DNA from: Ignavibacteriota bacterium
GTDB lineage: Bacteria > Bacteroidota > Ignavibacteria > Palsa-1295
Reading direction: 5' to 3'
Assembly: GCA_963794025.1 (NCBI GenBank)
Contig: CAWCCK010000018.1
Location: forward strand, 2,706 to 66,705
Length of the DNA stretch: 64,000 nt
Under the pieces are notes generated by a model that made no database searches, was not told the origin of the DNA, and saw nothing but the letters and a program-made list of their open reading frames with translations. The position numbers were made by a program, and so were the translations under genes. This document shows, one piece after another, positions 2,075 to 30,500 of the stretch (positions are counted from its first letter, which is position 1; every line of letters begins with the position of its first letter).

Positions 2075-3061
2075 TTGCTCTTAGGCGTTGATATTGGCGG
2101 CACAACGGTCAAGCTTGGCGTCATCGATGCCGCGAGTGGAAGCATTATTGCCGAGTCTGCTTTTCCCACGCCACAAACAGGTTCACGCAATGTGGCAAAA
2201 GCGATCGCTGAACGGGTATATGAAAAGCGATCGGCATATCCAGAGATCGCGCGAATGGGTGTTGGGGTTCCGGGTGCTATGAATCGGGATCGTTCCCTCG
2301 TCCGCTACCCTCCAAATCTTTTGGGATGGAAAGAAGAGCCGCTCCAAACATATCTCAAGGAATTTTTGCCGGATTTTGAACGCATTGAAGTAGATAACGA
2401 TGCCAACGTAGCCGCATTAGCGGAAGCGCATCATGGCGCGGGTCGCGGACTTTCGCATTTTCTTCTCATCACGCTCGGAACCGGAATCGGCGGCGCAATT
2501 TACGCAACAGAACCACCCCCCGCATCGTCGGCGATGCGCCCTCGCCTTGAAAAGTCGGGGGGATTATTGTATCGCGGCGCATCCGGCGGCGCTGGTGAAT
2601 TTGGGCACATCTCTATCGATCTCAATGGCCCGGTATGCAATTGCGGTTCCCATGGGTGTATCGAAGCATATCTCGGTCAGCACTATCTTTCGGAACGAAC
2701 TCGAAAAAAATTGATGGAAAATCCATCCATTCAATCAGTTCTACGGATGGAAGTGGATGAGCTTACCCCGAAAATCATAGCCGACGCTATGAATGACGGC
2801 GATGCGTTTGCGCGAAGTGTGTTTGAGGAAGCCGGAATGCTGCTTGGCGTTGCGCTGGCGAATGTGGCGAATTTACTTGACATGCACGTATTTATTCTCG
2901 GCGGCGGCGTGGCGGAAGCTGGGGAAGTTTTGTTCGATGCCGCGCTTGCTTCGCTTCGTTCGCGGGCGCTGGCAAATTTGCGTCCCGTTGTGGAAATTCG
3001 CAAAGCGCATCTCGGCAATCGGGCGGGAATGATTGGCGCAGCGATGCTCGTGGCAGAATAG
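2075..3061 (+). CDS. ROK family sugar kinase (glucokinase). Carries an in-frame ~18-aa insertion from a GC-rich palindromic element.
   Basis: LGVDIGGT N-terminal ATP motif, the CNCGSHGCIEAY zinc motif and GAGEFGHI. The insertion ATEPPPASSAMRPRLEKSGG splits the conserved LGTGIGG...LYRGASGGAGE block. Confidence 0.8.
   Translation: MLLGVDIGGTTVKLGVIDAASGSIIAESAFPTPQTGSRNVAKAIAERVYEKRSAYPEIARMGVGVPGAMNRDRSLVRYPPNLLGWKEEPLQTYLKEFLPDFERIEVDNDANVAALAEAHHGAGRGLSHFLLITLGTGIGGAIYATEPPPASSAMRPRLEKSGGLLYRGASGGAGEFGHISIDLNGPVCNCGSHGCIEAYLGQHYLSERTRKKLMENPSIQSVLRMEVDELTPKIIADAMNDGDAFARSVFEEAGMLLGVALANVANLLDMHVFILGGGVAEAGEVLFDAALASLRSRALANLRPVVEIRKAHLGNRAGMIGAAMLVAE
2511..2565 (+). mobile_element. In-frame GC-rich palindromic element, a degenerate copy inside the ROK kinase gene
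   Basis: gAACCACCCCCCgcatcgtcggcgatgcgCCCTCGCCTTgaaaagTCGGGGGGatt shares the AACCACCCCCC head, CGCCTT..GGGGG hairpin core and GGGGG tail with the copies at 14152, 28270 and 28689. Confidence 0.5.
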
Positions 3062-3072
3062 GTCACAAATTA

Positions 3073-4491
3073 ATGCCTACGGAACTTCCCATTTGCATTT
3101 CCGTCAATGGTTCATACATTTATTACATGAGGATTCTCTCGTCAATGCTCTTGTTCGTACTTGCGCGGGGAACTGTCCTCGCGCAAGAGGTGCAAGTTCC
3201 GTTCGACTCGTCAGGAACGATTCAAGTGATCAATCAGGATTTCGAAAAAAAATTAGATCTGTTTCCGGCGCATCCTCATTTTCTTGAAGCTCGTCTGTTT
3301 CGGGAACCGGATAGTGGGTATGTACTCGAAGTTACGTCGTTTGAGAACAGCCAGCTTGTAAAAGACCGACTTCCGATCAATGCGAGCACGCTGAAATTGC
3401 TGCGAGAGAAAGTCGATGCGCTGCTCGGCTCGCAAACGGCAGTTGTGACACCGTATCAAAGTTCCAGATCAAAATTTGTTCTTGGCGAGACGCTTCTATC
3501 GACCTTTCTATATGGGCCGGCGATCATCACTGCGATCAATTCGGAGAATGTCGGATTGGATCTCGGCCTCGAATTGATCATCGGTGGCTCGGGGTATTTT
3601 CTTTCTTCTGCACTGACCCGAAATGGGTCGATGACGGACGCTGAAGGTTCCCTTTCACTTGGAGGAGCATTTTTAGGAGCCGTGCATGGTGGATTAATTG
3701 ACGTGCTGTTTGCAAAGGGGGGTAATCCCGGCCTTGCGATCGGGCCTATAATAGCCGCCGCCAGCCTTGCCGAAACAGGAATAGGTTATGCGATCGCATC
3801 GCACGATACGATGACCCAGGGAACTGCCGATATGATCCGTTATGGTGGCTTGTTTGGAATGGTGGATGGCTTTGGAATGGCGTTCGCGGTAAATAATCAT
3901 GCTCCGCATGAACTGTGGTCTGGACTGAGTTTAGCAGGATCGGCTGTTGGCTTCGCTGCCGGGGCTATGATGGCAAACAGCCAATTCTACAACCGGGGTA
4001 GTGGGTTGGTTGTTGCAACCATCGGAACGTATAGCGCTTACATTCCAGCCATTATTTATGCTTCTATGATCGATTATAATTTCGCGCATTCGCCGCCCTC
4101 CGGCCTCCCGCTCGTTGGAATTGCCGGCAATATCGGAGGTGTATTGCTCGCTAATTCTTTCGTGCAAAAGCGGGATTTCTCGACTTCGGATGGAACCACC
4201 GTTATTCTCGGTACAACGGCAGGATGTCTTATCGGAAGCGGCTTGGGAGCTATCTTGATTTCGCAAAAAGCACTGAGCAATTCGCTATGGGCATTTTCGA
4301 TTCCCTCCATTGTTGGCACCGTTGCGGGCTTTGGTATAAGCCTTGCAAGCCTCGGCAATGGCACTGACAAAACATCTACCGGTTGGAAATTCGATGCCAA
4401 TCCCGCCGCGCTTATGGGCGCATTGATGCCGAAGCATGAGAATAACGCGCCGGTTTCTGTGCCCATTTTTTCAGCAAGCTGCAAGTTCTAA
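3073..4491 (+). CDS. Hypothetical glycine-rich integral membrane protein (signal peptide and multiple G/A-rich helices)
   Basis: 472-aa ORF with N-terminal hydrophobic signal and repeated GxxxG-rich hydrophobic segments. No recognisable catalytic motif. Confidence 0.4.
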   Translation: MPTELPICISVNGSYIYYMRILSSMLLFVLARGTVLAQEVQVPFDSSGTIQVINQDFEKKLDLFPAHPHFLEARLFREPDSGYVLEVTSFENSQLVKDRLPINASTLKLLREKVDALLGSQTAVVTPYQSSRSKFVLGETLLSTFLYGPAIITAINSENVGLDLGLELIIGGSGYFLSSALTRNGSMTDAEGSLSLGGAFLGAVHGGLIDVLFAKGGNPGLAIGPIIAAASLAETGIGYAIASHDTMTQGTADMIRYGGLFGMVDGFGMAFAVNNHAPHELWSGLSLAGSAVGFAAGAMMANSQFYNRGSGLVVATIGTYSAYIPAIIYASMIDYNFAHSPPSGLPLVGIAGNIGGVLLANSFVQKRDFSTSDGTTVILGTTAGCLIGSGLGAILISQKALSNSLWAFSIPSIVGTVAGFGISLASLGNGTDKTSTGWKFDANPAALMGALMPKHENNAPVSVPIFSASCKF

Positions 4492-4515
4492 CGCTCATGT
4501 GTCGTATCTTTGTAG
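4480..4515 (+). promoter_or_regulatory. Bacteroidetes-type -7 element (TATCTTTG) 15 nt upstream of the pyrF start
   Basis: gtcgTATCTTTGtagaaaattaattctATG. Confidence 0.3.
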
Positions 4516-4527
4516 AAAATTAATTCT

Positions 4528-5310
4528 ATGACCTTCCTCGAAAAAATAAAAGCGGCTCAGACAAAAAGCCATTCCATGCTGTGCGTCGGATTAGATACCG
4601 ACTGGAAAACCATTCCCGAAATTCTGAAGAACGAGCCGAATCCTGTGGCAGCGTTCAATCGCGCTATCATCGACGCAACGAGCGATCTCGCGTGTTGCTA
4701 TAAATTGCAGATGGCCTATTATGAAGCGTACGGAACGAAAGGTATCGAAGCAGTGGAGCAAACGCTCGCGCATATTCCGGCGCACATTCTCACCATTGGT
4801 GATGTAAAGCGCGGTGACATCGGCGCGACAAGCGAGAAATACGCTTACACCTATCAGGAATTGTTCCCATTCGATGCGATCACCATTAACCCGCTGATGG
4901 GATTCGATGGCATCGAACCATTCATGCGACGTGAGGATAGAGGCGTGTTCTTTCTCGGATTAACCTCGAATCCCGGCGCGCGCGATTTCGAATATCTCGA
5001 ACTCACGAATGGGAAAAAGCTGTATGAAGAAATTACGGATAAAGTCCGCGAATGGAACGCTCCGAAAAAGAATGCAGGACTCGTCGTTGGCGCAACAAAG
5101 CCAACGGAACTTAAAGCACTCCGCCAGCGCGCTCCGGAACTTCCGTTTCTCATTCCCGGCGTAGGCACGCAGGGCGGAACAATGGAAGAAGTACTCGAAG
5201 CGAATGGCGATGGTCTCGCGCTTATCAATGTAAGCCGTGGCATTGCCGGAGCATCGAAAGGATCGGACTTTGCAGAAGCGGCTCGAAAAGCAGCCCAGCA
5301 GTATCTCTAA
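4528..5310 (+). CDS. pyrF: Orotidine 5'-phosphate decarboxylase
   Basis: 260 aa with N-terminal CVGLDTD and a lysine-containing GDVKRGDIG motif and C-terminal IPGVGTQGG. These are the OMP decarboxylase signature blocks. Confidence 0.8.
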   Translation: MTFLEKIKAAQTKSHSMLCVGLDTDWKTIPEILKNEPNPVAAFNRAIIDATSDLACCYKLQMAYYEAYGTKGIEAVEQTLAHIPAHILTIGDVKRGDIGATSEKYAYTYQELFPFDAITINPLMGFDGIEPFMRREDRGVFFLGLTSNPGARDFEYLELTNGKKLYEEITDKVREWNAPKKNAGLVVGATKPTELKALRQRAPELPFLIPGVGTQGGTMEEVLEANGDGLALINVSRGIAGASKGSDFAEAARKAAQQYL

Positions 5311-5315
5311 TTCTG

Positions 5316-5408
5316 GATTCCCGCTTTCGCGGGAATGACATAAAATGATCTTAGTGCGCGAAGCGCCACGATAAAAACGTACTTGTCATTCCCGCGAAAG
5401 CGGGAATC
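5316..5408. mobile_element. REP/MITE-like palindromic element with ~25-nt inverted termini (gattcccgctttcgcgggaatgaca ... tgtcattcccgcgaaagcgggaatc)
   Basis: Perfect terminal inverted repeat read directly. A second copy with the same termini and the same gcgcgaagcgc core lies at 49240-49324. Confidence 0.65.
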
Positions 5409-5457
5409 TATTCCCCAAATCCTGCACAATCCGCTAAAAATCCCATAAATCAGAGTC

Positions 5458-6825
5458 ATGATTTCCGAATCCTTCCTGCGCGAAATATGGAAAGCTCACG
5501 CAAGCTTTCTCGTTTCTCCGATCTTACTTTCGGATGGTTCGCCCGTTGATATTATTGATTGTGGCACAGATAACACCCATCGTGGAGGCCCGGATTTTCT
5601 CAGCGCACGCATTGTAATGGATGGCGTTCAAATTAGTGGCGATGTTGAACTACATATCACGCCCGAAGGCTGGCACGTACATGAGCACGATGGCGATGCA
5701 CGTTATTCGAATGTCATACTTCACGTTGTGCTCGAAGATTCGGACGAGAAAGTTGGTCCGCCGGTACCGCAAGTGGTGCTGCGTGATAATCTTGCCTTTG
5801 GCCGAAGCGATTTGTGGGAACAGTTATTCCGCAAAATGTACGACCGTTCTCCGGAACTTCCATGCTTTCCGCAGAATATCCTTGTTCCCATGCGCTTCAA
5901 GCGTAAAGTGCTCGATCAATTCGGGCATGCTCGTCTTGAAGAATTAATTGATCGCGTTACCATTTCCGAGCGCGAAATTCCATCGGAATCAGACATGCTT
6001 GAGCGAGTCTATCAGCTTACGATGGATGCGTTAGGCTATTCGCAAAATCGGGTTCCATTCCGAGAACTTTCTGCGCTCTTGCCCCTATCGCGTCTGCGAT
6101 TTGCGCGTGAAGCTTTTAGTGAGAACAGGAGTATCTCATTGGAAGCCGTCTTTTTCGGCGTCGCCGGACTTTTGCCGAAACCATCCCTCGAATTCGACAA
6201 CGAGACGAACGAATATCTCCTCGAACTGAACGCGCGATGGAATGCCATTCAGCAATCCCTCCGATTTCCGGAAGTGCTTGCCGAGCACGATTGGGCGTTC
6301 TTTCGGATTCGTCCGGCGAATAGTCCGCACCGGCGCATTGCGCTTGCGGCTGTATTGGCGGAGAAGTATTTCAGTCGGTCAGAATGGGATTTTCGGCACA
6401 ATTTCTTCGATAAAGGCCCAATCGTAAATTTAGGCGATAGCCCTTATTGGGAAACGCACACCTCATTTGCGTCGAAATTACCCGCTCCACAATCGCTTTT
6501 GGGCGAGGAGCGTGGTTCGGCAATATGGCTGAATGTCGTTATTCCTGCACGAATAGCAAGGCTGCGAACAGAGCCGGAAAATCCTTCACTACGGCGGAGC
6601 GAGCGCGAATTGATCGAAGAATGGGGAAGCGCGCGGACACAATCGAGCGCAAAATACCTTTCTGTGATCGAACAGGAACTTCTGGAAGGCGAAAACGTTA
6701 AATCCGTCCGCTCCGAACAGGGTGCGCTTTTACTTCAGAGAAACTTCTGTCAGAAGCTACGCTGTTCTGAGTGTCCCATCGGTCATCGCCTGATAGAAAA
6801 GGGATGGCGGGTGGGGAAAGTATGA
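5458..6825 (+). CDS. DUF2851 family protein
   Basis: 455 aa. The N-terminal FL..W....F........G..V.I...G..N...GPDF..A.I...G....G.VE.H...S.W..H.H..D..Y.NVILHVV pattern matches the DUF2851 family common in Bacteroidota. Confidence 0.5.
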   Translation: MISESFLREIWKAHASFLVSPILLSDGSPVDIIDCGTDNTHRGGPDFLSARIVMDGVQISGDVELHITPEGWHVHEHDGDARYSNVILHVVLEDSDEKVGPPVPQVVLRDNLAFGRSDLWEQLFRKMYDRSPELPCFPQNILVPMRFKRKVLDQFGHARLEELIDRVTISEREIPSESDMLERVYQLTMDALGYSQNRVPFRELSALLPLSRLRFAREAFSENRSISLEAVFFGVAGLLPKPSLEFDNETNEYLLELNARWNAIQQSLRFPEVLAEHDWAFFRIRPANSPHRRIALAAVLAEKYFSRSEWDFRHNFFDKGPIVNLGDSPYWETHTSFASKLPAPQSLLGEERGSAIWLNVVIPARIARLRTEPENPSLRRSERELIEEWGSARTQSSAKYLSVIEQELLEGENVKSVRSEQGALLLQRNFCQKLRCSECPIGHRLIEKGWRVGKV

Positions 6826-6866
6826 AGTATGAAATGGGAAAACGAGCCTATTTCATACTTCATACT
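6819..6866. repeat. Hairpin (agtatgaagtatgaaat ... atttcatacttcatact) overlapping the DUF2851 stop codon; possible terminator
   Basis: 17-nt inverted arms with tandem (g)tatgaa units. Followed by the tRNA-Gly gene. Confidence 0.5.
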
Positions 6867-6874
6867 TGGCAAAT

Positions 6875-6948
6875 GCGGGAGTAACTCAGTTGGTAGAGTG
6901 CGACCTTGCCAAGGTCGATGTCGCGGGTTCAAGTCCCGTCTCCCGCTC
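6875..6948 (+). tRNA. tRNA-Gly (anticodon GCC)
   Basis: 74-nt cloverleaf: acceptor gcgggag/ctcccgc, anticodon stem cgacc/ggtcg with loop ttGCCaa, T-loop ttcaagt. No encoded CCA. Confidence 0.85.
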
Positions 6949-6954
6949 TACGGG

Positions 6955-6990
6955 GAAATTATGAATGATGAATTATGAATGATGAGTTGA
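6955..6990 (+). repeat. Single-arm copy of the AATTATGAATGATGA tandem unit (x2), identical to the hairpin arms at 8833 and 8905. It supplies the start codons of the following ORF.
   Basis: ggaaattatgaatgatgaattatgaatgatgag. Confidence 0.5.
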
Positions 6991-7157
6991 AATTTAAGTA
7001 TAGCAGCGATATTGATGCACTTTGGATAGACATTCAAGAGGGCATAGTCAATGACACGATCGAAATCGCGCAAGATTTATTCGTCGATTTTGATGAGAAT
7101 AGGAATATTTTAGCGATTGAAATGCTGGATGCTTCAAGAATTGTAAATGATGTTTGA
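6975..7157 (+). CDS. DUF2283 domain protein (small protein usually partnered with a DUF4258 toxin); orphan copy
   Basis: 60 aa: KYSSDIDALWIDI..G.......I..D..VDFDENRNILAIEMLDAS matches the DUF2283 pattern (Y..e.DalYI.l........e.....i.D.d..g.ivGIEildAs). Confidence 0.6.
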   Translation: MNDELKFKYSSDIDALWIDIQEGIVNDTIEIAQDLFVDFDENRNILAIEMLDASRIVNDV

Positions 7158-7190
7158 CTATTAGAGGTCTTTTGCGGAAGCACATAAAGT

Positions 7191-8396
7191 AATGCCCACT
7201 CCTCAAGATTTAGCCGCCGAATTATCTCAAGAGCGATTTCGCACTGACATCGCTGCTTGAATTCGCGCGCACGCTTACGCCCGATCTTGGGCCGAGCGGG
7301 ATTATCCGCAGCGTGCTCCGGACGGTCATGGGCAAATCGCTTATCAAGGAAGCCATTGCGTATCTCGGCACCGTGGATGGCGAGCGATATGAATTAGTTG
7401 CTCGCGCCGGATTTGACCATCTCAAGCTTTCGGAATCGGTCGATCGCAGAAAACCTTGACGAACTAATCGCAAAAATATCGGAGCCATTTACCGCCGTTC
7501 CGCTTATGACTGCCGATGGCACGGGCTATCTCGGATTGCTCGCGCTTGGCCCATCCATCAACCCGAAATTAAGCGGCGATTCCGAAGCAACGTATCTCGC
7601 ATCGCTTGCTGCGCTTACATCCATTGCACTGACGAATGCGTGGTTATTTGAGCGAGAAAAAGAACGAGAGCGATTAGAATCCGAATTACGACTTGCGAGA
7701 GATATTCAAGAATCACTGCTTCCGCAACAGTTGCCGAAGATTGCCGGAGTCGAGTTCGCTGCGATGTCGCGGCCTTCCGAATGGGTCGGCGGCGATTATT
7801 ACGATGTTATTCAATTAGATGAAAATCGCGTGCTTCTTGCTATTGCCGATGTTGTTGGCAAGGGCGTAACGGCTGCGCTTACGATGTCCAATTTGCAGGC
7901 TGCGCTCCGTGCATTAGTAACCATGCTTCGGGCGGGACATTTAACACTGCTCGATGTCGTAAAAGAATTGAACCGCCTGATGTGCGAAAGCACCGCACCG
8001 GAGCGATTCATTACCGCCGCGTTCGTTGTGCTCGATATTCATCGCCATACGATGGAAACGGTTGTTTGCGGCCATCCAAATCCGATCATAATATCACCCG
8101 AACGCCAACCCGTTATTGCAGAAAGCACCGGCATCCCGCTTGGGATCATCCCAACATTTCCGTATGAATCTCGAAATTACCATTTATCGCGAGGCACCCT
8201 GATCGTACTTTACACCGATGGCTTATCCGAAGCATTCTACGGAGATGCTCTTCTTGGAGAACATGGCACGATTCAACTGGCATTAAAAGCGTTGCAACAG
8301 CAAGGGAGCCTTCAGCAGATATTAGAAGAAATGGGGCGTTCCGAGCAAATATCCATCGAAGATGATATCACGGTCTTAGCGGTTCGCATGAAGTGA
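7191..8396 (+). pseudogene. GAF-PP2C (SpoIIE/RsbU-type) serine phosphatase with two frameshifts in the N-terminal GAF region
   Basis: Frame 0 (7191-7259) encodes MPTPQDLAAELSQERFRTDIAA and then hits a stop. Frame +1 (7258-7460) continues with EFARTLTPDLGPSGIIRSVLRTVMGKSLIKEAIAYLGTVDGERYELVARAGFDHLKLSES. The third frame (ORF 7398-8396) carries the rest of the GAF domain and a complete PP2C domain (GGDYYDV...DVVGKG...LYTDGL). Joining the frames reads naturally (..TDIAA-LEFARTL..). Confidence 0.5.
7398..8396 (+). CDS. PP2C-family serine phosphatase domain (longest intact ORF of the disrupted gene above)
   Basis: SpoIIE/PP2C motifs: GGDYYD, ADVVGKG, YTDGLSEA. Confidence 0.7.
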   Translation: MLAPDLTISSFRNRSIAENLDELIAKISEPFTAVPLMTADGTGYLGLLALGPSINPKLSGDSEATYLASLAALTSIALTNAWLFEREKERERLESELRLARDIQESLLPQQLPKIAGVEFAAMSRPSEWVGGDYYDVIQLDENRVLLAIADVVGKGVTAALTMSNLQAALRALVTMLRAGHLTLLDVVKELNRLMCESTAPERFITAAFVVLDIHRHTMETVVCGHPNPIIISPERQPVIAESTGIPLGIIPTFPYESRNYHLSRGTLIVLYTDGLSEAFYGDALLGEHGTIQLALKALQQQGSLQQILEEMGRSEQISIEDDITVLAVRMK

Positions 8397-8544
8397 TAGA
8401 ATTGAAGCATTACCAAATTCATTGAAAGCGAACTTGTAACGGAAGCCGCCTGTTACCTCGCTCCGCGTCAGGCAGAACCACGATTACACGGATTGGATGG
8501 ATTTTCTGGATTATGCAATAATCCTTAAAATTCTCAAAGTCAAT

Positions 8545-8578
8545 AGCGTAATCAGCTCAGATCAGCGTAATCCAGGTT
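8545..8578 (+). repeat. GCGTAATCCAGGT box, copy 1 (agcgtaatcagctcagatcagcgtaatccaggtt), abutting the 5' end of tRNA-Arg
   Basis: Tandem half-site plus full 13-mer. The same composite recurs at 10393, 37408 and 44436, all on the + strand. Confidence 0.6.
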
Positions 8579-8652
8579 GCGCCCGTAGCTCAGGTGGATA
8601 GAGCAACAGCCTTCTAAGCTGTGGGTCGCTGGTTCGAGTCCAGCCGGGCGCA
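8579..8652 (+). tRNA. tRNA-Arg (anticodon TCT)
   Basis: Acceptor gcgcccg/cgggcgc, D-arm gctcaggtggatagagc, anticodon stem acagc/gctgt with loop ctTCTaa, T-loop ttcgagt. Confidence 0.85.
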
Positions 8653-8654
8653 CG

Positions 8655-8745
8655 ATTTTTGCAATTATGAATTATGAATTATGAATTATGAAAGGGGAAT
8701 AGCGTCCTTTTTCATAATTCATAATTCATAATTCATAATTGCCCA
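8655..8745. repeat. Hairpin whose arms are tandem AATTATG heptamers (x3 / x4) around a 25-nt loop, between tRNA-Arg and tRNA-His
   Basis: gcaattatgaattatgaattatgaaagg ... cctttttcataattcataattcataattcataattgc. Confidence 0.65.
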
Positions 8746-8749
8746 TCAT

Positions 8750-8824
8750 GGTGGGCGTAGCTCAGTTGGTTAGAGCGCCAGGTTGTGGCCCTGGAGGTCG
8801 TGGGTTCGAAGCCCATCGCTCACC
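8750..8824 (+). tRNA. tRNA-His (anticodon GTG) with encoded G-1
   Basis: G(-1) then acceptor gtgggcg/cgctcac with discriminator C. Anticodon stem ccagg/cctgg with loop ttGTGgc, T-loop ttcgaag. Followed by CCA. Confidence 0.8.
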
Positions 8825-8825
8825 C

Positions 8826-8935
8826 CATTTTTGGACAATTATGAATGATGAATTATGAATGATGAAGGTTGTTCGCCACTTTCTCATTGCCTGTTTTCTT
8901 AATTCATAATTCATCATTCATAATTTCATCCCATG
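8826..8935. repeat. Hairpin with AATTATGAATGATGAATTATGAATGATGA arms (inverted) between tRNA-His and gltX
   Basis: Left arm caattatgaatgatgaattatgaatgatgaagg. Right arm cttaattcataattcatcattcataatttcatcc. Confidence 0.6.
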
Positions 8936-10372: not shown

Positions 10373-10392
10373 ACGCGATCCTAAAAATCAAT

Positions 10393-10427
10393 CCTCGTAA
10401 TCCATCCAAATCCGCGTAATCCAGGTC
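10393..10427 (+). repeat. GCGTAATCCAGGT box, copy 2 (cctcgtaatccatccaaatccgcgtaatccaggtc), between convergent gltX and the OmpA-like gene
   Basis: Read directly. It ends at the stop codon of the minus-strand gene. Confidence 0.6.
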
Positions 10428-12511: not shown

Positions 12512-14638
12512 TTATGGTCGAATATATTTTCGCTGAAGTTGGCGTAGTTCTTCACGGGCAGCCTCTGGGTGTTTGAGCAGTTGTCCTGCTATATGAACGA
12601 TGTTGGGAACCGTAAACCCAAACGCCTCCAAGATCTTTTCTCCCGGCGAGGACACACCGAAATGATCGACCGAAAGCGATGCGCCTTGCGGCCCCACCCA
12701 TTTTCCCCATCCGAACGAAGTGGAAAGCTCGATGGAAAGCCTACACGTAACATCCGGCGGTAAAACGAGATCCTTGTAATGTTGCGTCTGCGCTTCAAAG
12801 AATGTACAGCAGGGCATCGAGACCACGCGTGTCATCATCCCTTTTTGCTCCAGTTCGATCTGTGCGGCAAGCGCCAGCGATATTTCCGAGCCGGTGGCAA
12901 TGAGAATGATTTCCGGCGCGCTCATCGCGTCCGATATAATGTATGCGCCTTTTGCAAGTTCCCGCGCAGGCGTGTATTTCTCCTGATCGATAACGGGAAG
13001 TTTTTGCCGCGTTAGCACGATCCCGATCGGGCCGCTCATCTTCATCGCGCATCGCCAGGCTTCCACCGTTTCATTCGCATCGGCAGGACGAATGATCGTA
13101 AAATTCGGCATCGCGCGCAGCGACGCAAGGTGCTCGATCGGCTGGTGCGTGGGACCATCCTCGCCAAGCGCAACGCTATCGTGCGTCCAGACAAAGATGG
13201 AGGGAATGTTCATCAGCGCAGAAAGCCGAACGGAAGGCCGCATGTAATCACTGAAGCAAAAGAAGGTTGAACCCGAAGGCCAGATACCACCATGCGCTGC
13301 CATACCATTGACGATCGCTCCCATTGCGTGCTCACGGATACCGAAATTGATGGTGCGTCCGTGATAGGAACCATGTTTAAGCTGGCTCGGCTCGAAATCA
13401 TCCGACGCTTCTAATTTTGTAAATGTCGATTCGTTAAGGTCGGCGGAACCGCTCATCAGCGTTGGGATTTTTTCTGCGATGCTGTTCATGACCTTGCCAC
13501 CGGTCGTGCGTGTAGCAACCGGGCCATCGGAAGGTTTATACACAGGGAGATTGGCATCCCAGCCATCTGGCAAGGAGTGATTTATTGCATGAAATAACGC
13601 TGCTCCATCGTTAGGATTCTCTTTTTGATATGCGGTAAATTGTTTATCCCACTCTGCACGTAATGTTGCTCCACGCTCGCCGGCTTCGTGAAAAACAGTT
13701 AGCACATCATTGGGAACATAAAAGTCGGGTTCCAACGGCCAGCCGAGATGCTGTTTCGTAAGGACCACTTCGTCTTTCCCCAACGGGTTCCCATGCGCTT
13801 TGCTGGAATCTTGTTTGTTAGGACTCCCATACCCGATATGCGTATGACACACAATGAGCGAGGGTTTATCGATCACCGATTTGGCTACGCGGATCGCGTG
13901 ATCGACAGCATCGAGATCGTTGGGGTCAGCCACATCCAGCACATGCCAGTGATACGCCTCGAAGCGTTTGCTAACATCTTCGGTAAAGGTGATGGCGGTG
14001 GAACCATCTATCGAAATTCCGTTGTCGTCGTAAAACGCAATAAGCTTCCCAAGTTCCAGATGTCCGGCAAGGGAAGCGGCTTCGCTCGTGATACCTTCTT
14101 CCATACACCCATCGCCAAGAATGACGTAGGTGTGATGATCGATAATTTCAGAGCTCCCCCTCCTTTCGAAGGAGGGGGCTGGGGGGTGGTTAAACGTGCT
14201 TGCAAGGAACTGTTCCGCGATCGCCATACCAACGGCGTTCCCAAATCCTTGTCCGAGCGGGCCGGTCGTTACTTCAATTCCTGGTGTGTGCCCACGCTCC
14301 GGATGTCCCGGCGTTTTCGAACCGAACTGACGAAATTGTTTGAGATCGTCGAGCGTCAGATCGTAACCCGTGAGATGCAAGAGCGCATAATGCAGCATCG
14401 AAGCGTGGCCGTTCGAAAGCATGAAGCGGTCGCGGTTGAACCAATGTGTATCCTTTGGATCGAAGCGGAGGTGCCGCGTCCAGAGCACATAGCCGACGGG
14501 CGCAAGGCCCATCGGAGCGCCGGGATGGCCGCTATTAGCCTTCTGAACCGCATCGACGGCTAAAAAGCGAATTGTATTTACGCAAAGTTGATCGAGATCG
14601 TCGGAGGTGATAGAAGAGTGTGAGTGTTCGTGAACCAT
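12512..14638 (-). CDS. tkt: Transketolase; carries an in-frame insertion (NHPPAPSFERRGSS) from the GC-rich palindromic element
   Basis: 708 aa with the ThDP-binding GHPGAPMG, GDGCMEEG and C-terminal transketolase domains. The insertion sits just upstream of the conserved DHHTYVILGDGC block. Confidence 0.85.
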   Translation of the reverse strand: MVHEHSHSSITSDDLDQLCVNTIRFLAVDAVQKANSGHPGAPMGLAPVGYVLWTRHLRFDPKDTHWFNRDRFMLSNGHASMLHYALLHLTGYDLTLDDLKQFRQFGSKTPGHPERGHTPGIEVTTGPLGQGFGNAVGMAIAEQFLASTFNHPPAPSFERRGSSEIIDHHTYVILGDGCMEEGITSEAASLAGHLELGKLIAFYDDNGISIDGSTAITFTEDVSKRFEAYHWHVLDVADPNDLDAVDHAIRVAKSVIDKPSLIVCHTHIGYGSPNKQDSSKAHGNPLGKDEVVLTKQHLGWPLEPDFYVPNDVLTVFHEAGERGATLRAEWDKQFTAYQKENPNDGAALFHAINHSLPDGWDANLPVYKPSDGPVATRTTGGKVMNSIAEKIPTLMSGSADLNESTFTKLEASDDFEPSQLKHGSYHGRTINFGIREHAMGAIVNGMAAHGGIWPSGSTFFCFSDYMRPSVRLSALMNIPSIFVWTHDSVALGEDGPTHQPIEHLASLRAMPNFTIIRPADANETVEAWRCAMKMSGPIGIVLTRQKLPVIDQEKYTPARELAKGAYIISDAMSAPEIILIATGSEISLALAAQIELEQKGMMTRVVSMPCCTFFEAQTQHYKDLVLPPDVTCRLSIELSTSFGWGKWVGPQGASLSVDHFGVSSPGEKILEAFGFTVPNIVHIAGQLLKHPEAAREELRQLQRKYIRP
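14152..14191 (-). mobile_element. In-frame GC-rich palindromic element inside tkt
   Basis: Coding strand reads aaccaccccccagCCCCCTCCtttcgaaaGGAGGGGGagc, a perfect 8-bp stem hairpin with an AACCACCCCCC flank. Confidence 0.6.
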
Positions 14639-19450: not shown

Positions 19451-19463
19451 AGAAAGTTACAGC

Positions 19464-21960: not shown

Positions 21961-22162
21961 GCGTAATTGTCTGCGCTTCGAGAGAAGTGGAAGTGATTAA
22001 GAATGCTGAGAATAATTGCGATTTTTTTCATAAAAATGTCCGATAATGGTTGGAATGTACATACCTCTCCATATAGACAAGAACGCACAAGGTCGCTCGG
22101 GTTACAAAAAAATCTTAAAAAATATTTCGTGGGTGGTCAAAATAGCTCAGAATCGCCATTTT

Positions 22163-22531
22163 TTATTTAACTTTCTCCCGCACCCACACCTCGCCATCCG
22201 CCAGCTTTACGTCATAGACGGGAATGCTTCCGCTTGCACCCATAAGGTTGTCCGTGATAAGATGGCCGGTCGGAATATCGAATAGCCAGCCATGTAGCGG
22301 GCACGCGATGGTGCGGGCCGCACAATCGAGCGTTCCCGCCGCGAGAATCGGCGAGATCTCGTGCGGGCAGATATTCGAGGTAGCATAGATCACATCGTCA
22401 ATATTAAAAATAGCGATCTCCCGATCTTCTATAACAATAACCTTCCCACGCTCGCAATTTTTGGGAAGTTCTTGGGTGGTGCAAGCGAAGGTGAATTCCA
22501 TGGGCGCGCTTAGCTCGCCCCGCAATTCCAT
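22163..22531 (-). CDS. Rieske [2Fe-2S] domain protein (NirD / small Rieske ferredoxin-like)
   Basis: CPH...G...C..H motif: NICPHEISPIL...IACPLHGWLFD. Confidence 0.65.
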   Translation of the reverse strand: MELRGELSAPMEFTFACTTQELPKNCERGKVIVIEDREIAIFNIDDVIYATSNICPHEISPILAAGTLDCAARTIACPLHGWLFDIPTGHLITDNLMGASGSIPVYDVKLADGEVWVREKVK

Positions 22532-22576
22532 TCGCGCGGCTTCGAGGGCTTCGTCGTCGATTTCGTCCGTGTGTAT

Positions 22577-23788: not shown

Positions 23789-23789
23789 A

Positions 23790-24293
23790 CTAATATGGCA
23801 CCTTCATTCCATGATAAAAATCGGGTTCCTTAAAATCTTTTCGAAGTGGGTGTCCCGGATAATCGTCGTCCAATAAAATGCGACGATGGTCGGGGTGTCC
23901 ATCGAAATGAATGCCCATCATATCCCACGCTTCGCGTTCCTGCCAGTTGGCGTGAAGCCATATATCGGTTACAGAGGGAACATGCGCATTCTCTGATGGA
24001 ATGGTTACTTTCAGAGCAAGCTGGTGCGCGTGTCGCGTCGATTCAAGATGATAGACCACCGAAAGGGAACCATCGCCGTTATCGAGCGAAGAAATAAGGA
24101 GTAGGCTGTCAAAATCCAGTTCCCGTTTATCGCGCAGAAAAAATGCGAGATCGCGAATGGTGGAGGGTTCCGCAATTTCGAGAAACGATCCCATCCGGCG
24201 TTGGTAAGCATTTTCGGAATTCGATTCATGCCACGCACCGAATGTTTCTCCGAAGGTAGCTCGAAGAGCGTCAATAATGTTTAATTGCTCCAT
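23790..24293 (-). CDS. nuoC: NADH-quinone oxidoreductase subunit C
   Basis: 167 aa in 30-kDa subunit family context, directly upstream of nuoD. Conserved HPDHRRIL and DYPG.PLRKDF motifs. Confidence 0.7.
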   Translation of the reverse strand: MEQLNIIDALRATFGETFGAWHESNSENAYQRRMGSFLEIAEPSTIRDLAFFLRDKRELDFDSLLLISSLDNGDGSLSVVYHLESTRHAHQLALKVTIPSENAHVPSVTDIWLHANWQEREAWDMMGIHFDGHPDHRRILLDDDYPGHPLRKDFKEPDFYHGMKVPY

Positions 24294-24302
24294 CAGTTAG
24301 CT

Positions 24303-24388
24303 GTCATTGCGAGGAGCGAGGAACGAGCGACGAAGCAATCTCATGCTTGAGATTGCTTCGTCGTCCCTCCGGGACTCCTCGCAATGAC
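24303..24388. repeat. Nested double hairpin in the nuoB-nuoC intergenic spacer
   Basis: Outer arms gtcattgcgaggag/ctcctcgcaatgac. Inner arms cgacgaagcaatctca/tgagattgcttcgtcg. Confidence 0.6.
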
Positions 24389-24390
24389 GG

Positions 24391-24909
24391 TTAAATTTCT
24401 TCATTCCGTTTCGCCTGCATTCTCACGATTTCCTGCAATTTCATCAGTCCTTCCAGCAGCGCTTCGGGGCGTGGCGGGCAGCCGGGAATATAGACATCGA
24501 CGGGAATGATTCTATCCACGCCTTTCAGCACATGGTAACCATATTCCCAATACGGTCCGCCGCAGTTCGAGCAATTGCCCATCGAGATCACGTATTTCGG
24601 ATCGGCCATTTGCTCATAGAGCATTTTAATGCGCGTGGCCATTTTTAGCGTCACGGTTCCCGAAATAATGATCACATCCGATTGCCTCGGACTCGGGCGC
24701 GGAATAACGCCAAAGCGCATCATATCGTAATGCGACGCAGCGGTGGACATCATCTCTATCGCGCAGCAGGCAAGGCCGAAGCTCATCTGCCACAAGCTGG
24801 AAAGCCGCGACCAATCGAAGAGCGTATCGAGGCTCGTCACAATAACATTCCCATCGCCCGTCTTATCGGTTGGAAGGACGGGGAGTTCGAGTTTATCTAA
24901 ATAGCCCAT
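24391..24909 (-). CDS. nuoB: NADH-quinone oxidoreductase subunit B
   Basis: 172 aa with Fe-S ligand motifs ([26 protein letters not shown]). Confidence 0.85.
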
Positions 24910-25035
24910 GGAATAATTACGAATTTCAAATTACGAATTACGAGTCTCAAAACTTCAGGGCGAATCTGCCGCGATCTTGTTTGGCGCAGATTCGTAATTC
25001 GCAATTTGAAATCCGTAATTTTTCATAATGACGAC
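24905..25035. repeat. AATTACGAA-type tandem-unit inverted repeats with an inner palindrome (ggcgaatctgccgcg...cgcagattcg) between nuoA and nuoB
   Basis: aattacgaatttcaaattacgaattacgag ... ttcgtaattcgcaatttgaaatccgtaattt. Confidence 0.55.
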
Positions 25036-25422
25036 ATCCTTCAGCCGCGCAATGTATGGCTTGGGACGCGCCCAATCCAGATCGCCTTTGGCCCATACAT
25101 AAATGTAGCCCACGAGGAGAATTCCCAGGAACGTAAACATTTCCGCAATGGCAAACCAACCCATTGCTTTATAAATGATCGCCCATGGAAACAAAAATAA
25201 GATCTCGACATCGAACAAAATAAAGATCAGCGCAACCACGTAATACCGAATGTTGAACTTCACCCATGCGCCGCCGATCGTATCTTCCCCGCATTCATAA
25301 GAAGAAAGCTTGAACTGATTCGGATTTTTCGGACGCAGAATTTTGCTCGTAAGGAGTCCGCCCGCAACAAAAATAATTGCGAGTATCCCGAATGCAAATA
25401 CGTGGCTGAATTCTCCTAACAC
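24955..25422 (-). CDS. nuoA: NADH-quinone oxidoreductase subunit A
   Basis: Three TM helices. YECGED...F..RYY..A..F..FDVE..FLFPWA is the NuoA signature. Confidence 0.7.
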   Translation of the reverse strand: MLGEFSHVFAFGILAIIFVAGGLLTSKILRPKNPNQFKLSSYECGEDTIGGAWVKFNIRYYVVALIFILFDVEILFLFPWAIIYKAMGWFAIAEMFTFLGILLVGYIYVWAKGDLDWARPKPYIARLKDVVIMKNYGFQIANYESAPNKIAADSP

Positions 25423-25553
25423 GACTGAGATTTATTGGGTGTTAACGTATTCTTATGAGACTCATTCAAAACGTTCGTCGCATGGAGATAATGCCGAGTA
25501 AGAAAGGCCGCAAAAAACTCGCAGCCTTTTCTTAAGAAAGTTCTCGCAAGCGA

Positions 25554-26210
25554 TCACTCGTTTTCGACGTACATCTTCTCCACTTCGGCGGCTCTTCCGG
25601 GATTCGTTCCACCGGGCTTGCCGGTGACATCGGGAAGATTCACGATCTTATCGACAACATCCATCCCATCGGTCACTTGGCCAAAGACGGTATATTGCTT
25701 ATCGAGAAACCCCGCATCGGCAACGCAGATGAAAAATTGGCAGGAAGCGGAATTAGGGTCATTCGTTCGCGCCATTGAAAGAATTCCACGCTCATGGTGG
25801 ACGGAATTAAATTCTGCGTTGAGGCGAACGGAGCCGTTATTACCTTGTCCATCATTCGAATAATCGTTATCTTTCGTATTCGGATCGCCGCCCTGGATCA
25901 TAAATCCCGGAATAACGCGATGGAAATAGGTGCCATTGTAAAAATGGCTGTCGGCTAATTTAATAATGTTCGCAACATGGTTCGGCGCTACTTTCTCAAA
26001 AAGCTGGAGCTTGATCGTCCCCTGCTTCGTCACAATAACGAGCCGGCGTTTCGGATGCGCGGTGAGTTGATCGAGTTTGGTTCCGGTCATGGGTGGTTTG
26101 TAACTCGGGCCTGTGCCCAAAATGGTTGCGGAGGTGATAATAGCTAACGTGGCAGCACACGCTGCGAACGAAGCCGCGAATAGAATAGATCTTTTAAGTT
26201 GTTTTTTCAT
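25554..26210 (-). CDS. Cyclophilin-type peptidyl-prolyl cis-trans isomerase (secreted)
   Basis: Signal peptide plus FHRVIPGFMIQGGDP and the downstream cyclophilin motifs. Confidence 0.8.
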   Translation of the reverse strand: MKKQLKRSILFAASFAACAATLAIITSATILGTGPSYKPPMTGTKLDQLTAHPKRRLVIVTKQGTIKLQLFEKVAPNHVANIIKLADSHFYNGTYFHRVIPGFMIQGGDPNTKDNDYSNDGQGNNGSVRLNAEFNSVHHERGILSMARTNDPNSASCQFFICVADAGFLDKQYTVFGQVTDGMDVVDKIVNLPDVTGKPGGTNPGRAAEVEKMYVENE

Positions 26211-26296
26211 GCAAATAGGTAAAACGAGAAAACGAAATTGTTAGAAAATACTATATGTAAAAAAACGACAATCCGTTCCCCGATTTTACTTCTACG

Positions 26297-27115
26297 TCAT
26301 TCTATCGTAATTTTCCCACTCGGACTATTATACGATCCCGGCACCACGCTGCCATCGGGCGCGAGGAGCTGTAATTTTACCGTATGCTCACCTTTTGCGA
26401 GACCGGTAATGTAATACGGCTGCCATTTCACAATGTCCGGCGCATGATCGATTATGCAGGCGGTGGTATCGATCCACACTTTCACTTTATACTTATCCGG
26501 CGCAAGCGTGGCATTCGATACGAAAAAATCGAGCAGCACGTTAGAATTTTCTCCGGCGGCATACGTGCCTTTCGGTCGGGAATAGGTTAGCAGCGGGCCG
26601 TTCAGATTATTCATCTGAGCGGAGTCCACTTTGGCAGTTCCCACATAAAACGTTCTCGTCGCAAAGGCATGTGGCGATTTCATACTCTCATGCCACGAAA
26701 ACGATGGGAACGCGCGAATCGTATGCATCCCCGGAGCGAGCACGCCAATATTGAACGGCTCGCCATTCTTGTAATCCGCCATGTAGGGCTTCGCATCGAC
26801 GATAACGTGAACATGCTGGCCCTGCTTCGAATACGCAATGCCCAGCGTGCTATCGCCATCGGTATGCGTGCCAAGATCGGTTCCCGAAACCTGCATCACG
26901 ATCTTCACGGAATCGGCGGCATTCTTCAGCGTCTCGCCTTCTTTCGGCGAAACGATGGCGAGCGAAGCATCCGGATACGCCCGATGCGGCGCCGGAACGA
27001 TGGCAACGTGGCTTGCCGTGGTATCCACGCTGGATTGTTCCTCATGCTTACCGCACGAAATGAGAACTGCTGAAAGAAGCGCTACACTAAAAATGACGGA
27101 AAATGTTTTATGCAT
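26297..27115 (-). CDS. Hypothetical lipoprotein
   Basis: Signal peptide with lipobox (LLSAVLISCGK). No catalytic motif recognised. Confidence 0.4.
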   Translation of the reverse strand: MHKTFSVIFSVALLSAVLISCGKHEEQSSVDTTASHVAIVPAPHRAYPDASLAIVSPKEGETLKNAADSVKIVMQVSGTDLGTHTDGDSTLGIAYSKQGQHVHVIVDAKPYMADYKNGEPFNIGVLAPGMHTIRAFPSFSWHESMKSPHAFATRTFYVGTAKVDSAQMNNLNGPLLTYSRPKGTYAAGENSNVLLDFFVSNATLAPDKYKVKVWIDTTACIIDHAPDIVKWQPYYITGLAKGEHTVKLQLLAPDGSVVPGSYNSPSGKITIE

Positions 27116-27449
27116 ATTGATCTCCTTAAAATAAGTGATACAAAAATACGAAATATCTCATAGGCAGGTGTGAATATCAAAGAATGACATGAGTAAGACA
27201 TTCTGGCAGGCTTCACACAGAAATAGGTGCCGTTTTTCTTTCTTGCGAGTTCCCGATGTACCTTCGTTTCCAAGCTGTTTTCGCCATTTGTTCCAAAAAA
27301 CGCCCGTAATTTACTTTTCACAAAGAACTCGTTCATAAAGAAAGCTAATCTTTGTTATTCTTATAGAAACAGGTGCCTATCAATGCACTTCCAATATAAC
27401 ACATCCAAAACCCAAAAGCAAGCAAATCCGAAATTATTTTTGAAAATGT

Positions 27450-27538
27450 CCGTAGGGACGTGCTGCGCACGTCCGTTTGGCGGAAAACGAAATTCTTCAG
27501 CTTCGAACAAGCGGGACGTGCGCAGCACGTCCCTACGG
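27450..27538. mobile_element. Palindromic element with 25-nt perfect terminal inverted repeats CCGTAGGGACGTGCTGCGCACGTCC / GGACGTGCGCAGCACGTCCCTACGG in the 5' leader region of the RM gene
   Basis: Exact reverse-complement arms separated by 39 nt. It shares the CCGTAGGG..CCCTACGG termini with the elements at 61259-61446 and 62941-63001. Confidence 0.65.
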
Positions 27539-27559
27539 TTCTACACGTTGCGTACTACC

Positions 27560-27589
27560 TCTCTGCGAAAATGTCGTATTTTTGTCCCA
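27560..27589 (+). promoter_or_regulatory. Candidate -7 element TATTTTTG 5 nt upstream of the RM start codon (possible leaderless transcript)
   Basis: gtcgTATTTTTGtcccaATG. Confidence 0.25.
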
Positions 27590-30500
27590 ATGGCTAACAA
27601 GTTCGTCCAATCCTACCTTCGGGAGATCGAGCAGATTCACGCGCGCGGCAACGCGACCGAGCATAGCTATCGCGGCGCGTTGCAACGGCTGACCGATGCG
27701 CTGAACCCAAAAGTTCGGGCCGTCAATGAGCCAAAACGCGTAAATGTTGGCGCGCCCGATTATATCATTATGGAGGGCGAAACCCCGCTCGGATATATCG
27801 AAGCAAAGGATATTGGCGTTGATTTGGATGGCAAGGATACGCAGAAACAGCTTGCACGCTATGTCGATGGATTGGGGAATGTCATCCTTACCGATTATCT
27901 GGAATTCAGATGGTATGTCAACGATTCAAAAAACTACCGCCATGCCGTAACACTTGCAAAACCAAGCGGTAAAAAACTTATTTCGGAAGATAACGACGAG
28001 AAATTCATCGCGCTCTTTGCACAATTCTTAGGTTCCCCGGCAAGTACCGTCAAGTCCGCGAAAGAGCTTGCACTCCGGATGGCGAAGCTCGCCGATATTA
28101 TTCGCGACATCATTCTGAACGCGATTAACGAGGGTGAAAGCGTGCAGTTGAACGACACCATGAAATCGTTCCGCGAAGTGCTGCTGCACGACATGACCGA
28201 CCATCAGTTCGCCGATATGTACGCGCAAACTATTTCTTATGGCATGTTCGCCGCGCGCGTCAATCACCAACCGCCATCGAACCCCCGCCTTTCCAAGGCG
28301 GGGGCAGGGGGTGGTTTTAATCGCATGACCGCCGGATACGATCTCCCCAAGACGAATCCGTTCCTGCGCCAGCTTTTCAATACCATCGGAGGGCCAGAGC
28401 TGGATGAGCGTGTAACATGGGCTGTTGATGAACTCGCCAATCTGCTGCGACACACCGCGATGGAGGACATCCTACGCGATTTCGGAACCCGAACCCGACA
28501 GGAAGACCCCGTTGTACACTTTTATGAAACATTCCTTGCCGCCTACGATCCCAAACTTCGCGAGTCACGCGGTGTCTATTACACGCCGGAACCCGTCGTG
28601 AGTTATATCGTCCGTTCGGTCGATCATATTCTCAAAACCGATTTCGGATTGGAAAAGGGTTTGGCAGATTCGTCGAAGATTAAAACCCAACCACCCCCCA
28701 ACCCCCGCCTTAGAAAGGCGGGGGAGCCGATTCCCCCGCCTTTTCAAGGCGGGGGCCAGGGGGTGGTTGCCCCCCAGGATCTACACAAAGTCCTCATCCT
28801 CGATCCCGCTTGCGGGACGGGAACCTTCCTGCACGGCGTCATCGACCAAATTCACGATAACTTCAAAGGCAACGAAGGCGCGTGGTCCAGCTACGTCTCC
28901 GAGCATCTCCTGCCGCGCATTTTCGGATTTGAATTGCTCATGGCCCCGTATGCCGTCGCGCATCTCAAGCTTGGGCTGCAGCTAAAGGAATACGGGTACG
29001 ATTTCAAAAGCGACGAACGCCTCCGCGTCTATCTCACCAATACGCTCGAAGAAGCATTCACCGCCGACGAGCGCCTGCCCTTCTCCAATTACCTCGCTAA
29101 AGAAGCCAACGCCGCCAACGAAGTAAAGCGCGATCTCCCAATTATGGTCGTGCTCGGGAACCCGCCGTATTCGGGACACTCAGCAAATGCAAGCTGGAAA
29201 GAAGTTATCAATCCCAAAACCGGCAAAGCAAAAAAAGAAGCGACTTGGATTGGGGAGTTGATCCAGGATTATTATTATGTCGATGGCGCGCCACTCGGAG
29301 AAAAGAATCCCAAATGGCTGCAAGACGATTATGTGAAATTTATCCGCTTCGCTCAATGGCGTATCGAGCAGACCGGCTATGGCGTTCTCGCGTTCATATC
29401 GAATCACGGCTATCTCGATAATCCGACATTCCGCGGAATGCGCCAAAGCCTGATGAAAACCTTCGACGATATTTATGTTCTTGATCTTCATGGGAATAGC
29501 AAGCGAAAAGAGCGATCACCTGATGGCAGCAAAGATGAGAATGTATTCGATATTCAACAAGGAGTGGCAATTGGAATTTTTGTAAAGAAGAAAATTGAAA
29601 AGAAAAAAGATGCCGTTGTGAAGCATGGGCAACTTCATGGAATAAGGGAATCAAAATACAACACGCTTTGGAATAAACAAATTGAGAATTCAAAATGGAA
29701 GAAGCTACAACCTGATTCTCCTTTTTACCTTTTTATTCCACAAGATAAAGGAATTTGGGAAGAATTCGAAAAGGCACAGTCTGTAATAAGTTTCATGAGT
29801 GTTAATGGATGGGGCGTTGCCACAAGAAAGGATTATATTCTTGTTGACTTCAATAAAGTCGATTTGAAAAACAAGTTCGACAAAATTTTGTCTGGTGGAA
29901 TTGATGAAGCCTATGAATTAGGAATCCGAGACAATCCTCATTGGTCATTTAGGAATGTTAAAATCAAGTTGGGCAAATCTGTTGGCGATAGGATTTTAAA
30001 TTACACTTTTAGACCATTCGACAATCGCTTTGTTTTCTATGAGCCTTTAATGATTGAGCGAGGCGATCATAGGTGGCCAATTGCAAGACATTTGGTTCAA
30101 AAAGAGAAGAATTATAGCTTGTTAGTAAGCCGAACTGGGTCTGCGGCCGGATCACCAGTTTGGGATGTATTATTTGTTGCGAATAATTTAAGTGACCTAA
30201 ATTTATTTAGACGAGGAGGCGCATTCATCTTTCCTCTCTATCTCTACCCTGACGCCACCAAAAAAGACCTCTTCTCCGAAGCATCCACACCCGATCCGAC
30301 GCGCCGGGAACCGAATCTTTCGCCCGCCTTCATCGCGGAGTTTTCGGAACGCCTCCACCTAACATTCATTCCGGATGGTAAAGGGAACCTAAAAAAGACG
30401 TTCGGCCCCGAAGATGTTTTTCATTATATGTATGCTGTTTTTCACAGCCCCGCGTACCGCGCGCGTTATGCAGAATTTTTGAAGATCGATTTTCCGCGTT

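Follow-up and report, generated by a model that had tools for sequence, protein, structure and literature searches.

The 64,000-nucleotide stretch analysed here (the window; positions 2,706 to 66,705 of contig CAWCCK010000018.1) derives from a Kapabacteria/Ignavibacteriota-like host and is 50% G+C, so that the C5- and G5-rich stretches of the repeat with which we are concerned stand out. This repeat is a short hairpin module that interrupts, with the reading frame kept, three protein-coding genes, those of a ROK-family sugar kinase (ROK), a transketolase (Tkt) and a restriction-modification (RM) enzyme. An initial annotation, made from the letters alone, had pointed to four such sites and likened them to Rickettsia palindromic elements (RPE); when the sequence was re-read all four were present where that annotation placed them and encoded the peptides it gave. 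The genes and the repeat copies are:

2075..3061, plus strand: ROK-family sugar kinase gene (Pfam PF00480, the match being cut into two stretches by the insert)
2511..2562, plus strand: degenerate two-hairpin variant in the ROK gene, sense to the gene, encoding EPPPASSAMRPRLEKSGG; its parts are the C-box AACCACCCCCC (2511-2521), an inner hairpin GCATCGTCGGCGATGC (2521-2538) and a decayed main hairpin (2539-2562)
12512..14638, minus strand: transketolase (Tkt) gene (Pfam matches and PDB homologues)
14154..14193, minus strand: single unit in the Tkt gene, sense to the gene, profile E 2e-11, encoding NHPPAPSFERRGSS
27590..30898, plus strand: type ISP/IIG-like RM enzyme gene (Pfam Type_ISP_C, N6_Mtase)
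28281..28318, minus strand: single unit (RM1) in the RM gene, antisense to the gene, profile E 2e-10, encoding NPRLSKAGAGGGF
28688..28726, plus strand: left unit (RM2a) of a doublet in the RM gene, sense to the gene, profile E 3e-9
28731..28769, minus strand: right unit (RM2b) of the same doublet, antisense to the gene, profile E 9e-11

Comparison with copies elsewhere defines the repeat unit as about 38 bp, made up of a C-box (AACCACCCCC), a spacer of 2–3 nt and a 10-bp GC hairpin of the form CCCCC[T/G]CCTT - loop - AAGG[A/C]GGGGG. A profile made from 107 copies in other genomes (element consensus ACCAACCACCCCCTAACCCCCTCCTTGACAAGGAGGGGG) was then searched against the window, which contains four clear units and one degenerate unit; the profile-found units are all gene-internal (4/4). 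The Tkt unit is a C-box followed by the hairpin CCCCCTCCTT-CGA-AAGGAGGGGG, and RM1 is the hairpin CCCCCGCCTT-TCC-AAGGCGGGGG followed by GGGGGTGGTT. That the sites are non-random is borne out by the pattern CCCCGCCTT-N2-6-AAGGCGGGG, which occurs 3 times in the window and 0 times in 100 shuffles of it; moreover GGGGGTGGTT occurs exactly five times in the window, every time within the ROK, Tkt or RM gene.

The architecture of the copies had to be revised. The initial annotation described a full palindrome, but the true unit has one C-box and one hairpin, and both termini are found only in the pair at 28688-28769. This pair, which had been called a tandem double copy, is an inverted, tail-to-tail doublet of RM2a and RM2b (about 82 bp) that folds into one 88-nt hairpin (-41.8 kcal/mol, z -8.9; the folding energies of single units are -11 to -13 kcal/mol). 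The claim that all copies have the same orientation relative to the host gene is wrong, because the Tkt and RM2a units (like the ROK copy) are sense while both RM1 and RM2b run antisense. The match of the ROK copy to the profile is weak (E 1.4), although its C-box is exact. It is nevertheless a decayed but real member of a two-hairpin subfamily, because its inner hairpin GCATCGnCGnCGATGC is found again in two element copies in the Tkt gene of a relative (L123), where it is situated between the C-box and the main hairpin. In the same relative the annotated ATG start of Tkt falls within an element copy (L123 9981-10045), where the inner hairpin's 3' arm reads CGATGC, so this start codon is either supplied by the element or mis-called.

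Alignment with homologues confirms that the repeats are inserts in all three genes, and it upholds the earlier expectation that the extra peptides would be missing from close relatives. The Tkt protein is longer by nine amino acids than both PDB 8cip and an 89%-identical orthologue; the window protein reads FN-HPPAPSFERRGSSE-IIDHH where the orthologue reads FN-KEKHD-VIDHH, and in the DNA 38 nt stand in place of 11 nt (net +27 nt). In other Kapabacteria-like Tkt orthologues this site carries an insert that is similar or has visibly decayed, and in several relatives the motif HHPPTPSLKSRGS lies instead at the Tkt N-terminus. At the first RM site the additional ten amino acids are missing from all homologues examined, including a 78%-identical orthologue that has 18 nt of DNA where the window has 48 nt, and the 17 additional amino acids of ROK are missing from all 14 homologues aligned. 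The second RM site does not give so simple a picture, since it is a variable loop that in the orthologue P0121 is also filled by a doublet, there arranged head-to-head with a 39-nt spacer rather than tail-to-tail as in the window. AlphaFold models place the inserts in low-confidence loops (the initial annotation had expected surface loops): residues 155-162 of Tkt have pLDDT values below 50 and form a coil between a helix (130-149) and a strand (170-175), and residues 152-161 of ROK, also below 50, lie between two strands.

The repeat is by no means confined to this genome. An exact scan for AACCACCCCC-N2-3-CCCCCNCCTT, with one genome per species, gave at least 120 loci, and the matches listed come from more than ten phyla. 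They include Ignavibacteriota/Kapaibacterium, Zixibacteria, Acidobacteriota, Bacteroidota, Geobacterales, Desulfobulbaceae, Gamma- and Alphaproteobacteria, Armatimonadota, Nitrospirota, Planctomycetota, Chloroflexota and several candidate phyla radiation (CPR) lineages, and among the genomes with the module are those of isolates (Pedobacter superstes, Pontibacter and Erythrobacter). Inverted doublets, either head-to-head or tail-to-tail, are common among the listed loci. At one stem position the listed units have T-A in 131 cases, G-C in 8 and a non-complementary combination in 11, and the neighbouring stem pair is TT/AA in 107, TC/GA in 21 and TA/TA in 6. These are compensatory changes, and therefore the hairpin itself is under constraint.

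Units lie in long open reading frames (ORFs) in only 22 of 144 cases (15%) in these loci, as against 59% of random 38-nt probes from the same loci, so the family is about four-fold depleted from coding DNA. The gene-internal copies among the listed loci are evenly divided between the two orientations (13 sense, 13 antisense) and lie in unrelated genes. By reading of the translations, these genes appear to code for, among others, glucose-6-phosphate isomerase (PGI), a hydantoinase, a NACHT/TPR protein, an agmatine deiminase (two units in tandem) and, in a CPR genome, a RarA-like ATPase. The encoded peptides vary with the phase (for example NHPPAPS..RRGS and ..FQGGGQGVV). The use of several phases had already been taken to argue against a peptide function; with both orientations, at least two phases in each and unrelated peptides, a conserved peptide function is excluded, and the pattern fits selection filtering random insertions. 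The core of the earlier interpretation, a dispersed palindromic DNA element that makes in-frame, stop-free loop inserts in the RPE manner, is thus supported by the mostly non-coding nature of the module elsewhere, by its polymorphism among orthologues and by its depletion from ORFs. Of the further description of it as mobile, the dispersed repeat family stands, and mobility itself is what we infer from the distribution.

In ten loci (L026, L028, L031, L042, L046, L048, L055, L087, L090 and L116) the unit forms part of a longer conserved composite repeat, about 220 bp in all; the loci come from one Armatimonadota metagenome-assembled genome (MAG) and from two unclassified MAGs labelled "uncultured bacterium". 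The composite has a second hairpin and a two-hairpin G-box about 75 nt downstream of the unit and so makes up a larger REPIN-like element built of the same modules. Phages were considered as a vehicle and rejected, the pattern being present on only 11 viral contigs and the nuclease gene described below on none of them. No Rfam family matched the element: when the window was scanned at the gathering threshold and eight related loci by E-value, the only hits to it were chance resemblances to microRNA-like hairpins. Literature searches with the element's sequence strings and with the terms DUF559, Vsr/REPIN/RAYT and EDxHD found no description of the repeat.

To find recurrent neighbours, all ORFs of the 120 listed loci were clustered all-against-all. 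One small gene family directly abuts units in 8 of the 120 loci, from at least six phyla. It is DUF559 (PF04480; Pfam E values 1e-26 to 1e-31), and its ORF often runs into the downstream unit. The closest solved relative is a Neisseria endonuclease-like protein (PDB 3hrl, E 3e-18), and E56, D58 and H62, the catalytic residues, are invariant in the alignment; the related loci, but not the window, encode this Vsr-like nuclease. Pfam groups DUF559 with Vsr and the EDxHD homing endonuclease I-Bth0305I (PMC3424549, PMC3384342, PMC3239194), and homing endonucleases are known to include a family of Vsr-like EDxHD proteins (PMC3384342, PMC3239194). Nine representatives of the remaining recurrent gene families were inspected as other possible partners and discarded: the eight that were run against Pfam are of housekeeping types (ABC ATPase, T9SS-tail protein, GFO/IDH/MocA, epimerase, response regulator/kinase, nucleotidyltransferase, GT2 and pilin-like protein). 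No other candidate transposase recurs near units in the 120 listed loci.

The association also holds in the reverse direction. When a domain-only DUF559 alignment (A2) was used to fetch 80 metagenome loci, 27 of the 80 carried units of the window family, at a density of 1.11 per kb within 300 nt of the DUF559 gene and 0.027 per kb beyond that distance, a 41-fold difference. In the usual layout the C-box faces the DUF559 gene on both sides (upstream, 10 minus-strand against 3 plus-strand units; downstream, 13 plus against 4 minus), and of the 71 DUF559 loci for which both flanks were present, 55 bear flanking inverted repeats that exceed the 99th percentile of shuffles. DUF559 loci without the window family carry other modules of the same architecture, and sequence clusters of the nuclease co-vary with the module (aatccccct/CCCCCTTT, gaccccacccc/CCCCTCCCC and a two-hairpin form); in all module families inspected the box is similar, in direct orientation, to the 5' arm of the hairpin. 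The complete chromosome of a relative (OY969726.1), apparently also the source of a Tkt 79% identical to that of the window, carries a DUF559 gene with five units around it that are of the CGCC subtype, a subtype found also in the window's RM gene. At L160, a further locus on metagenome contig JTFN01006669.1, the sequence behind the DUF559 gene has a second copy of the gene's upstream module and first codons, which suggests a tandem duplication of the whole nuclease-plus-module unit. We found no paper, in the literature searched, that links DUF559 to dispersed repeats.

A family that spans many phyla, is mostly intergenic and often flanks a DUF559 gene looks like an undescribed mobile element resembling repetitive extragenic palindromic (REP) elements. 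We consider it probable that the inserts in the window are solo and paired copies of a REP-like selfish module of about 38 bp that is linked to a DUF559 nuclease, and that the gene-internal copies are rare survivors. The module is dispersed mainly between genes across bacteria, often as inverted doublets, and also forms the inverted flanks, with the C-box toward the gene, of small free-standing DUF559 genes of the Vsr-like, EDxHD type. Copies would land occasionally in coding DNA and would survive there only when the frame is kept, no stop codon is introduced and a surface loop tolerates them, in which case they would be translated as Pro/Gly-rich loop extensions. On one reading, intergenic copies may be lost by deletion, and gene-internal ones may be removable only by precise in-frame deletion; the latter may outlast intergenic copies in this lineage because imprecise deletion would destroy the host gene. 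We infer in addition that the DUF559 protein mobilises the repeats: it may nick or cut at the module and so drive its copying, either by homing-like or repair-templated spread or by movement dependent on a hairpin in single-stranded DNA. Replacement of 11–18 nt at the insertion sites without a duplication is easier to reconcile with copying that follows a nick or break and is repair-templated or conversion-like than with cut-and-paste, although the orthologues are too distant for certainty.

The main rival to this explanation, which we regard as unlikely but by no means negligible, makes the repeats the target of the nuclease and not its cargo: they would spread by another mechanism, and DUF559 would be a free-standing homing endonuclease gene that inserts in the middle of head-to-head doublets. 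The gene-less head-to-head doublets with short spacers in the Terriglobia loci and in L120 do resemble uninterrupted targets, the C-boxes point toward the gene on both flanks, EDxHD/Vsr-like proteins are known as homing endonucleases (PMC3384342), and target specificity would equally lead one to expect that nuclease clade and repeat co-vary. On the other hand, this leaves the solo copies and the tail-to-tail pairs unexplained, the 120 listed loci offer no other recurrent candidate transposase, and the DUF559 ORF often reads into the downstream unit. Mobilisation as classical REP/REPIN by a RAYT (an HUH Y1 transposase) would likewise account for short GC palindromes with a conserved flanking tag, for the inverted doublets and the mostly extragenic location, and GTAG-tagged REP doublets are in fact also present in the window; but the tag of the present family is AACCACCCCC and not GTAG or CGTC, the gene flanked by units is DUF559 and not a Y1 transposase, and no other small gene recurs near units in the families scanned, so we think it very unlikely. 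An origin as a MITE derived by deletion from a DDE-type insertion sequence (IS) was rejected, there being no target-site duplication at the Tkt and RM1 junctions and no IS transposase recurrent near units.

The remaining alternatives do away with a selfish element altogether. If the inserts were Pro/Gly-rich linkers or regulatory mRNA hairpins that had evolved in place under host selection, their position in loops, the intact frame, the stable hairpins and the retention of the Tkt insert in several relatives would all be expected. This is largely refuted and in our opinion highly improbable, as the same DNA is mostly non-coding in unrelated phyla, is found in both orientations and several phases with unrelated peptides, and is missing from the closest orthologues. 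Chance low-complexity sequence or an assembly artefact might be suspected because runs of C and G are error-prone and most of the related loci are from MAGs, but we give it almost no credence: shuffling yields no matches, an identical Tkt gene is present in an independent assembly, isolate genomes (the Pedobacter superstes, Pontibacter and Erythrobacter named above) carry the module, the inserts are in frame and the stem changes are compensatory.

Several observations nevertheless weigh against the nuclease-linked selfish module that we favour. There is no DUF559 gene in the 64-kb window, and the window is atypical of the family in having gene-internal units only. A nuclease alone is incapable of strand transfer, and the nuclease gene, instead of mobilising the repeats, could be a parasite with the repeats as its target. 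Occupancy of one Tkt site in relatives that are 78–87% identical could reflect a single ancient insertion and not ongoing mobility. At the Tkt and RM1 sites the module substitutes for 11–18 nt and is not a simple insertion, and no target-site duplication was seen at these two junctions, a comparison limited by the 78–89% identity of the orthologues. Finally, the exact-pattern scan detects well-conserved copies only, and most of its loci are MAGs.

Some other features of the window deserve mention. The RM gene probably starts at ATG 27590, to judge from its homologues, which align only from this Met (MANKF...), and the ORF that begins at GTG 27227 is probably an artefactual extension; the added part (27227-27589) would give the enzyme about 120 residues of implausible sequence. 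Just upstream of this probable start, at 27452-27536, is a classical GTAG-tagged REP doublet (GTAG-GGACGTGC-TGC-GCACGTCC, then an inverted copy that ends in CTAC); therefore a different REP family coexists in the intergenic DNA of this genome. Two matches to the Rfam Acido-Lenti-1 RNA (61255-61301 on the minus strand and 61404-61450 on the plus strand; 50.1 and 37.3 bits) are inverted and about 100 nt apart, and as they are by eye GTAG-tagged palindromes, it may be that this Rfam "sRNA" motif is itself a repeat of the REP type. Three other short palindromes recur in the window: ATTCCCGC-N4-GCGGGAAT at 5317-5336, 5388-5407 and 49303-49322, CGCAAACTTTAGTTTGCG at 115-132, 41359-41376 and 41392-41409, and GGGCTAATGGCATTAGCCC as two adjacent copies with complementary loops at 62947-62965 and 62978-62996.

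The family described here is widespread, has a candidate partner enzyme and, as far as we found in the literature, is undescribed. In-frame palindromic selfish DNA, which has been treated largely as a curiosity of Rickettsia, is now seen in free-living bacteria of many phyla and with a far smaller unit, and this bears on how conserved enzymes gain short peptide loops. DUF559 is a very widespread domain whose function is unknown, and the link found here gives it one that can be tested. There is also a practical side for annotation, as in protein families the units give rise to spurious indels, to start codons and to loops of low complexity.

Among known systems the RPE, palindromic repeats of Rickettsia (Ogata et al. 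2000, in the summary given by PMC10969869), are like the present element in being palindromic selfish repeats that lie in frame within unrelated and even essential genes, where they are tolerated as loop insertions. They are set apart by size and host: RPE are about 100–150 bp long and restricted to Rickettsia, whereas our element is about 38 bp (about 82 bp as the doublet) and is found in many phyla. An RPE family also has a conserved peptide in one frame, unlike the unrelated peptides, both orientations and several phases found here. Our element is in addition mostly intergenic and linked to a nuclease gene; for RPE no partner enzyme is known.

The likeness to REP/REPIN-RAYT systems is closer in several ways. 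These too have a GC palindrome of 20–40 bp with a conserved tag on one side, form singlets and inverted doublets and are mostly extragenic (PMC3116915, PMC3337134, PMC3733652), as are 85% of the listed units of the window family, which lie outside long ORFs; in both, the partner gene is itself repeat-flanked and the variants of partner and repeat are matched. They differ in the tag, which here is a C-rich box resembling the hairpin's 5' arm and in REP is GTAG or CGTC, and in the partner, a PD-(D/E)XK/Vsr-like DUF559 nuclease here and an HUH Y1 transposase in REP-RAYT. Furthermore, our module sequence is common across phyla, in contrast to REPIN-RAYT, which the REPIN papers describe as mostly vertically inherited. 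On the enzyme side the parallel is with EDxHD homing endonucleases such as I-Bth0305I (PMC3239194, PMC3384342), which have the same fold and belong to the same clan as the DUF559 partner and illustrate that this clan can include free-standing selfish genes. The known EDxHD members are found in introns or inteins, or else have one gene as their homing target, and no member is reported to occur with dispersed palindromic repeats or with derivatives that lack the gene.

A more familiar example may exist in E. coli K-12, where the DUF559 gene ycjD (L217, NC_000913.3 1351100-1352300) ends inside a C-box/hairpin-like sequence; after it come a partial copy of the gene's 3' end and, at a distance of about 150 nt, GTCCCCTCGCCCCTCTGGGGAGAGGGTTAGGGTGAGGGG, a hairpin plus a G-box. 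Across 5426 E. coli genomes, the median number of places at which this module beside ycjD (CCCTCACCC / CCCTCTCCCC) is found is 18 per genome. Its sequence is unlike that of the window family, but its architecture, a GC hairpin with a G-rich box, and its adjacency to DUF559 match. This dispersed repeat is probably the orphan BoxC family, judging by copy number and length; BoxC was reportedly first described beside envM/fabI, the neighbour of ycjD. It is a GC-rich imperfect palindrome. The published E. coli BoxC is 56 bp long and has 22–32 copies (PMC2267715). No paper proposing a link between BoxC and YcjD was found in the literature. As the sequences are different, BoxC and the window family can be at most members of the same superfamily; such a superfamily of REP-like repeats, with a candidate partner enzyme, would probably include BoxC in an organism where experiments are easy. 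Taking these comparisons together we advance, as a tentative proposal that could well prove wrong, that DUF559/Vsr-like nucleases and their clade-matched "C-box plus hairpin" repeats may constitute a pan-bacterial selfish system, probably including BoxC/YcjD, that could write short Pro/Gly-rich loops into essential proteins across phyla and would be a second partnership of REP sequences with an enzyme beside REP-RAYT, one based on a PD-(D/E)XK nuclease and not on an HUH enzyme.

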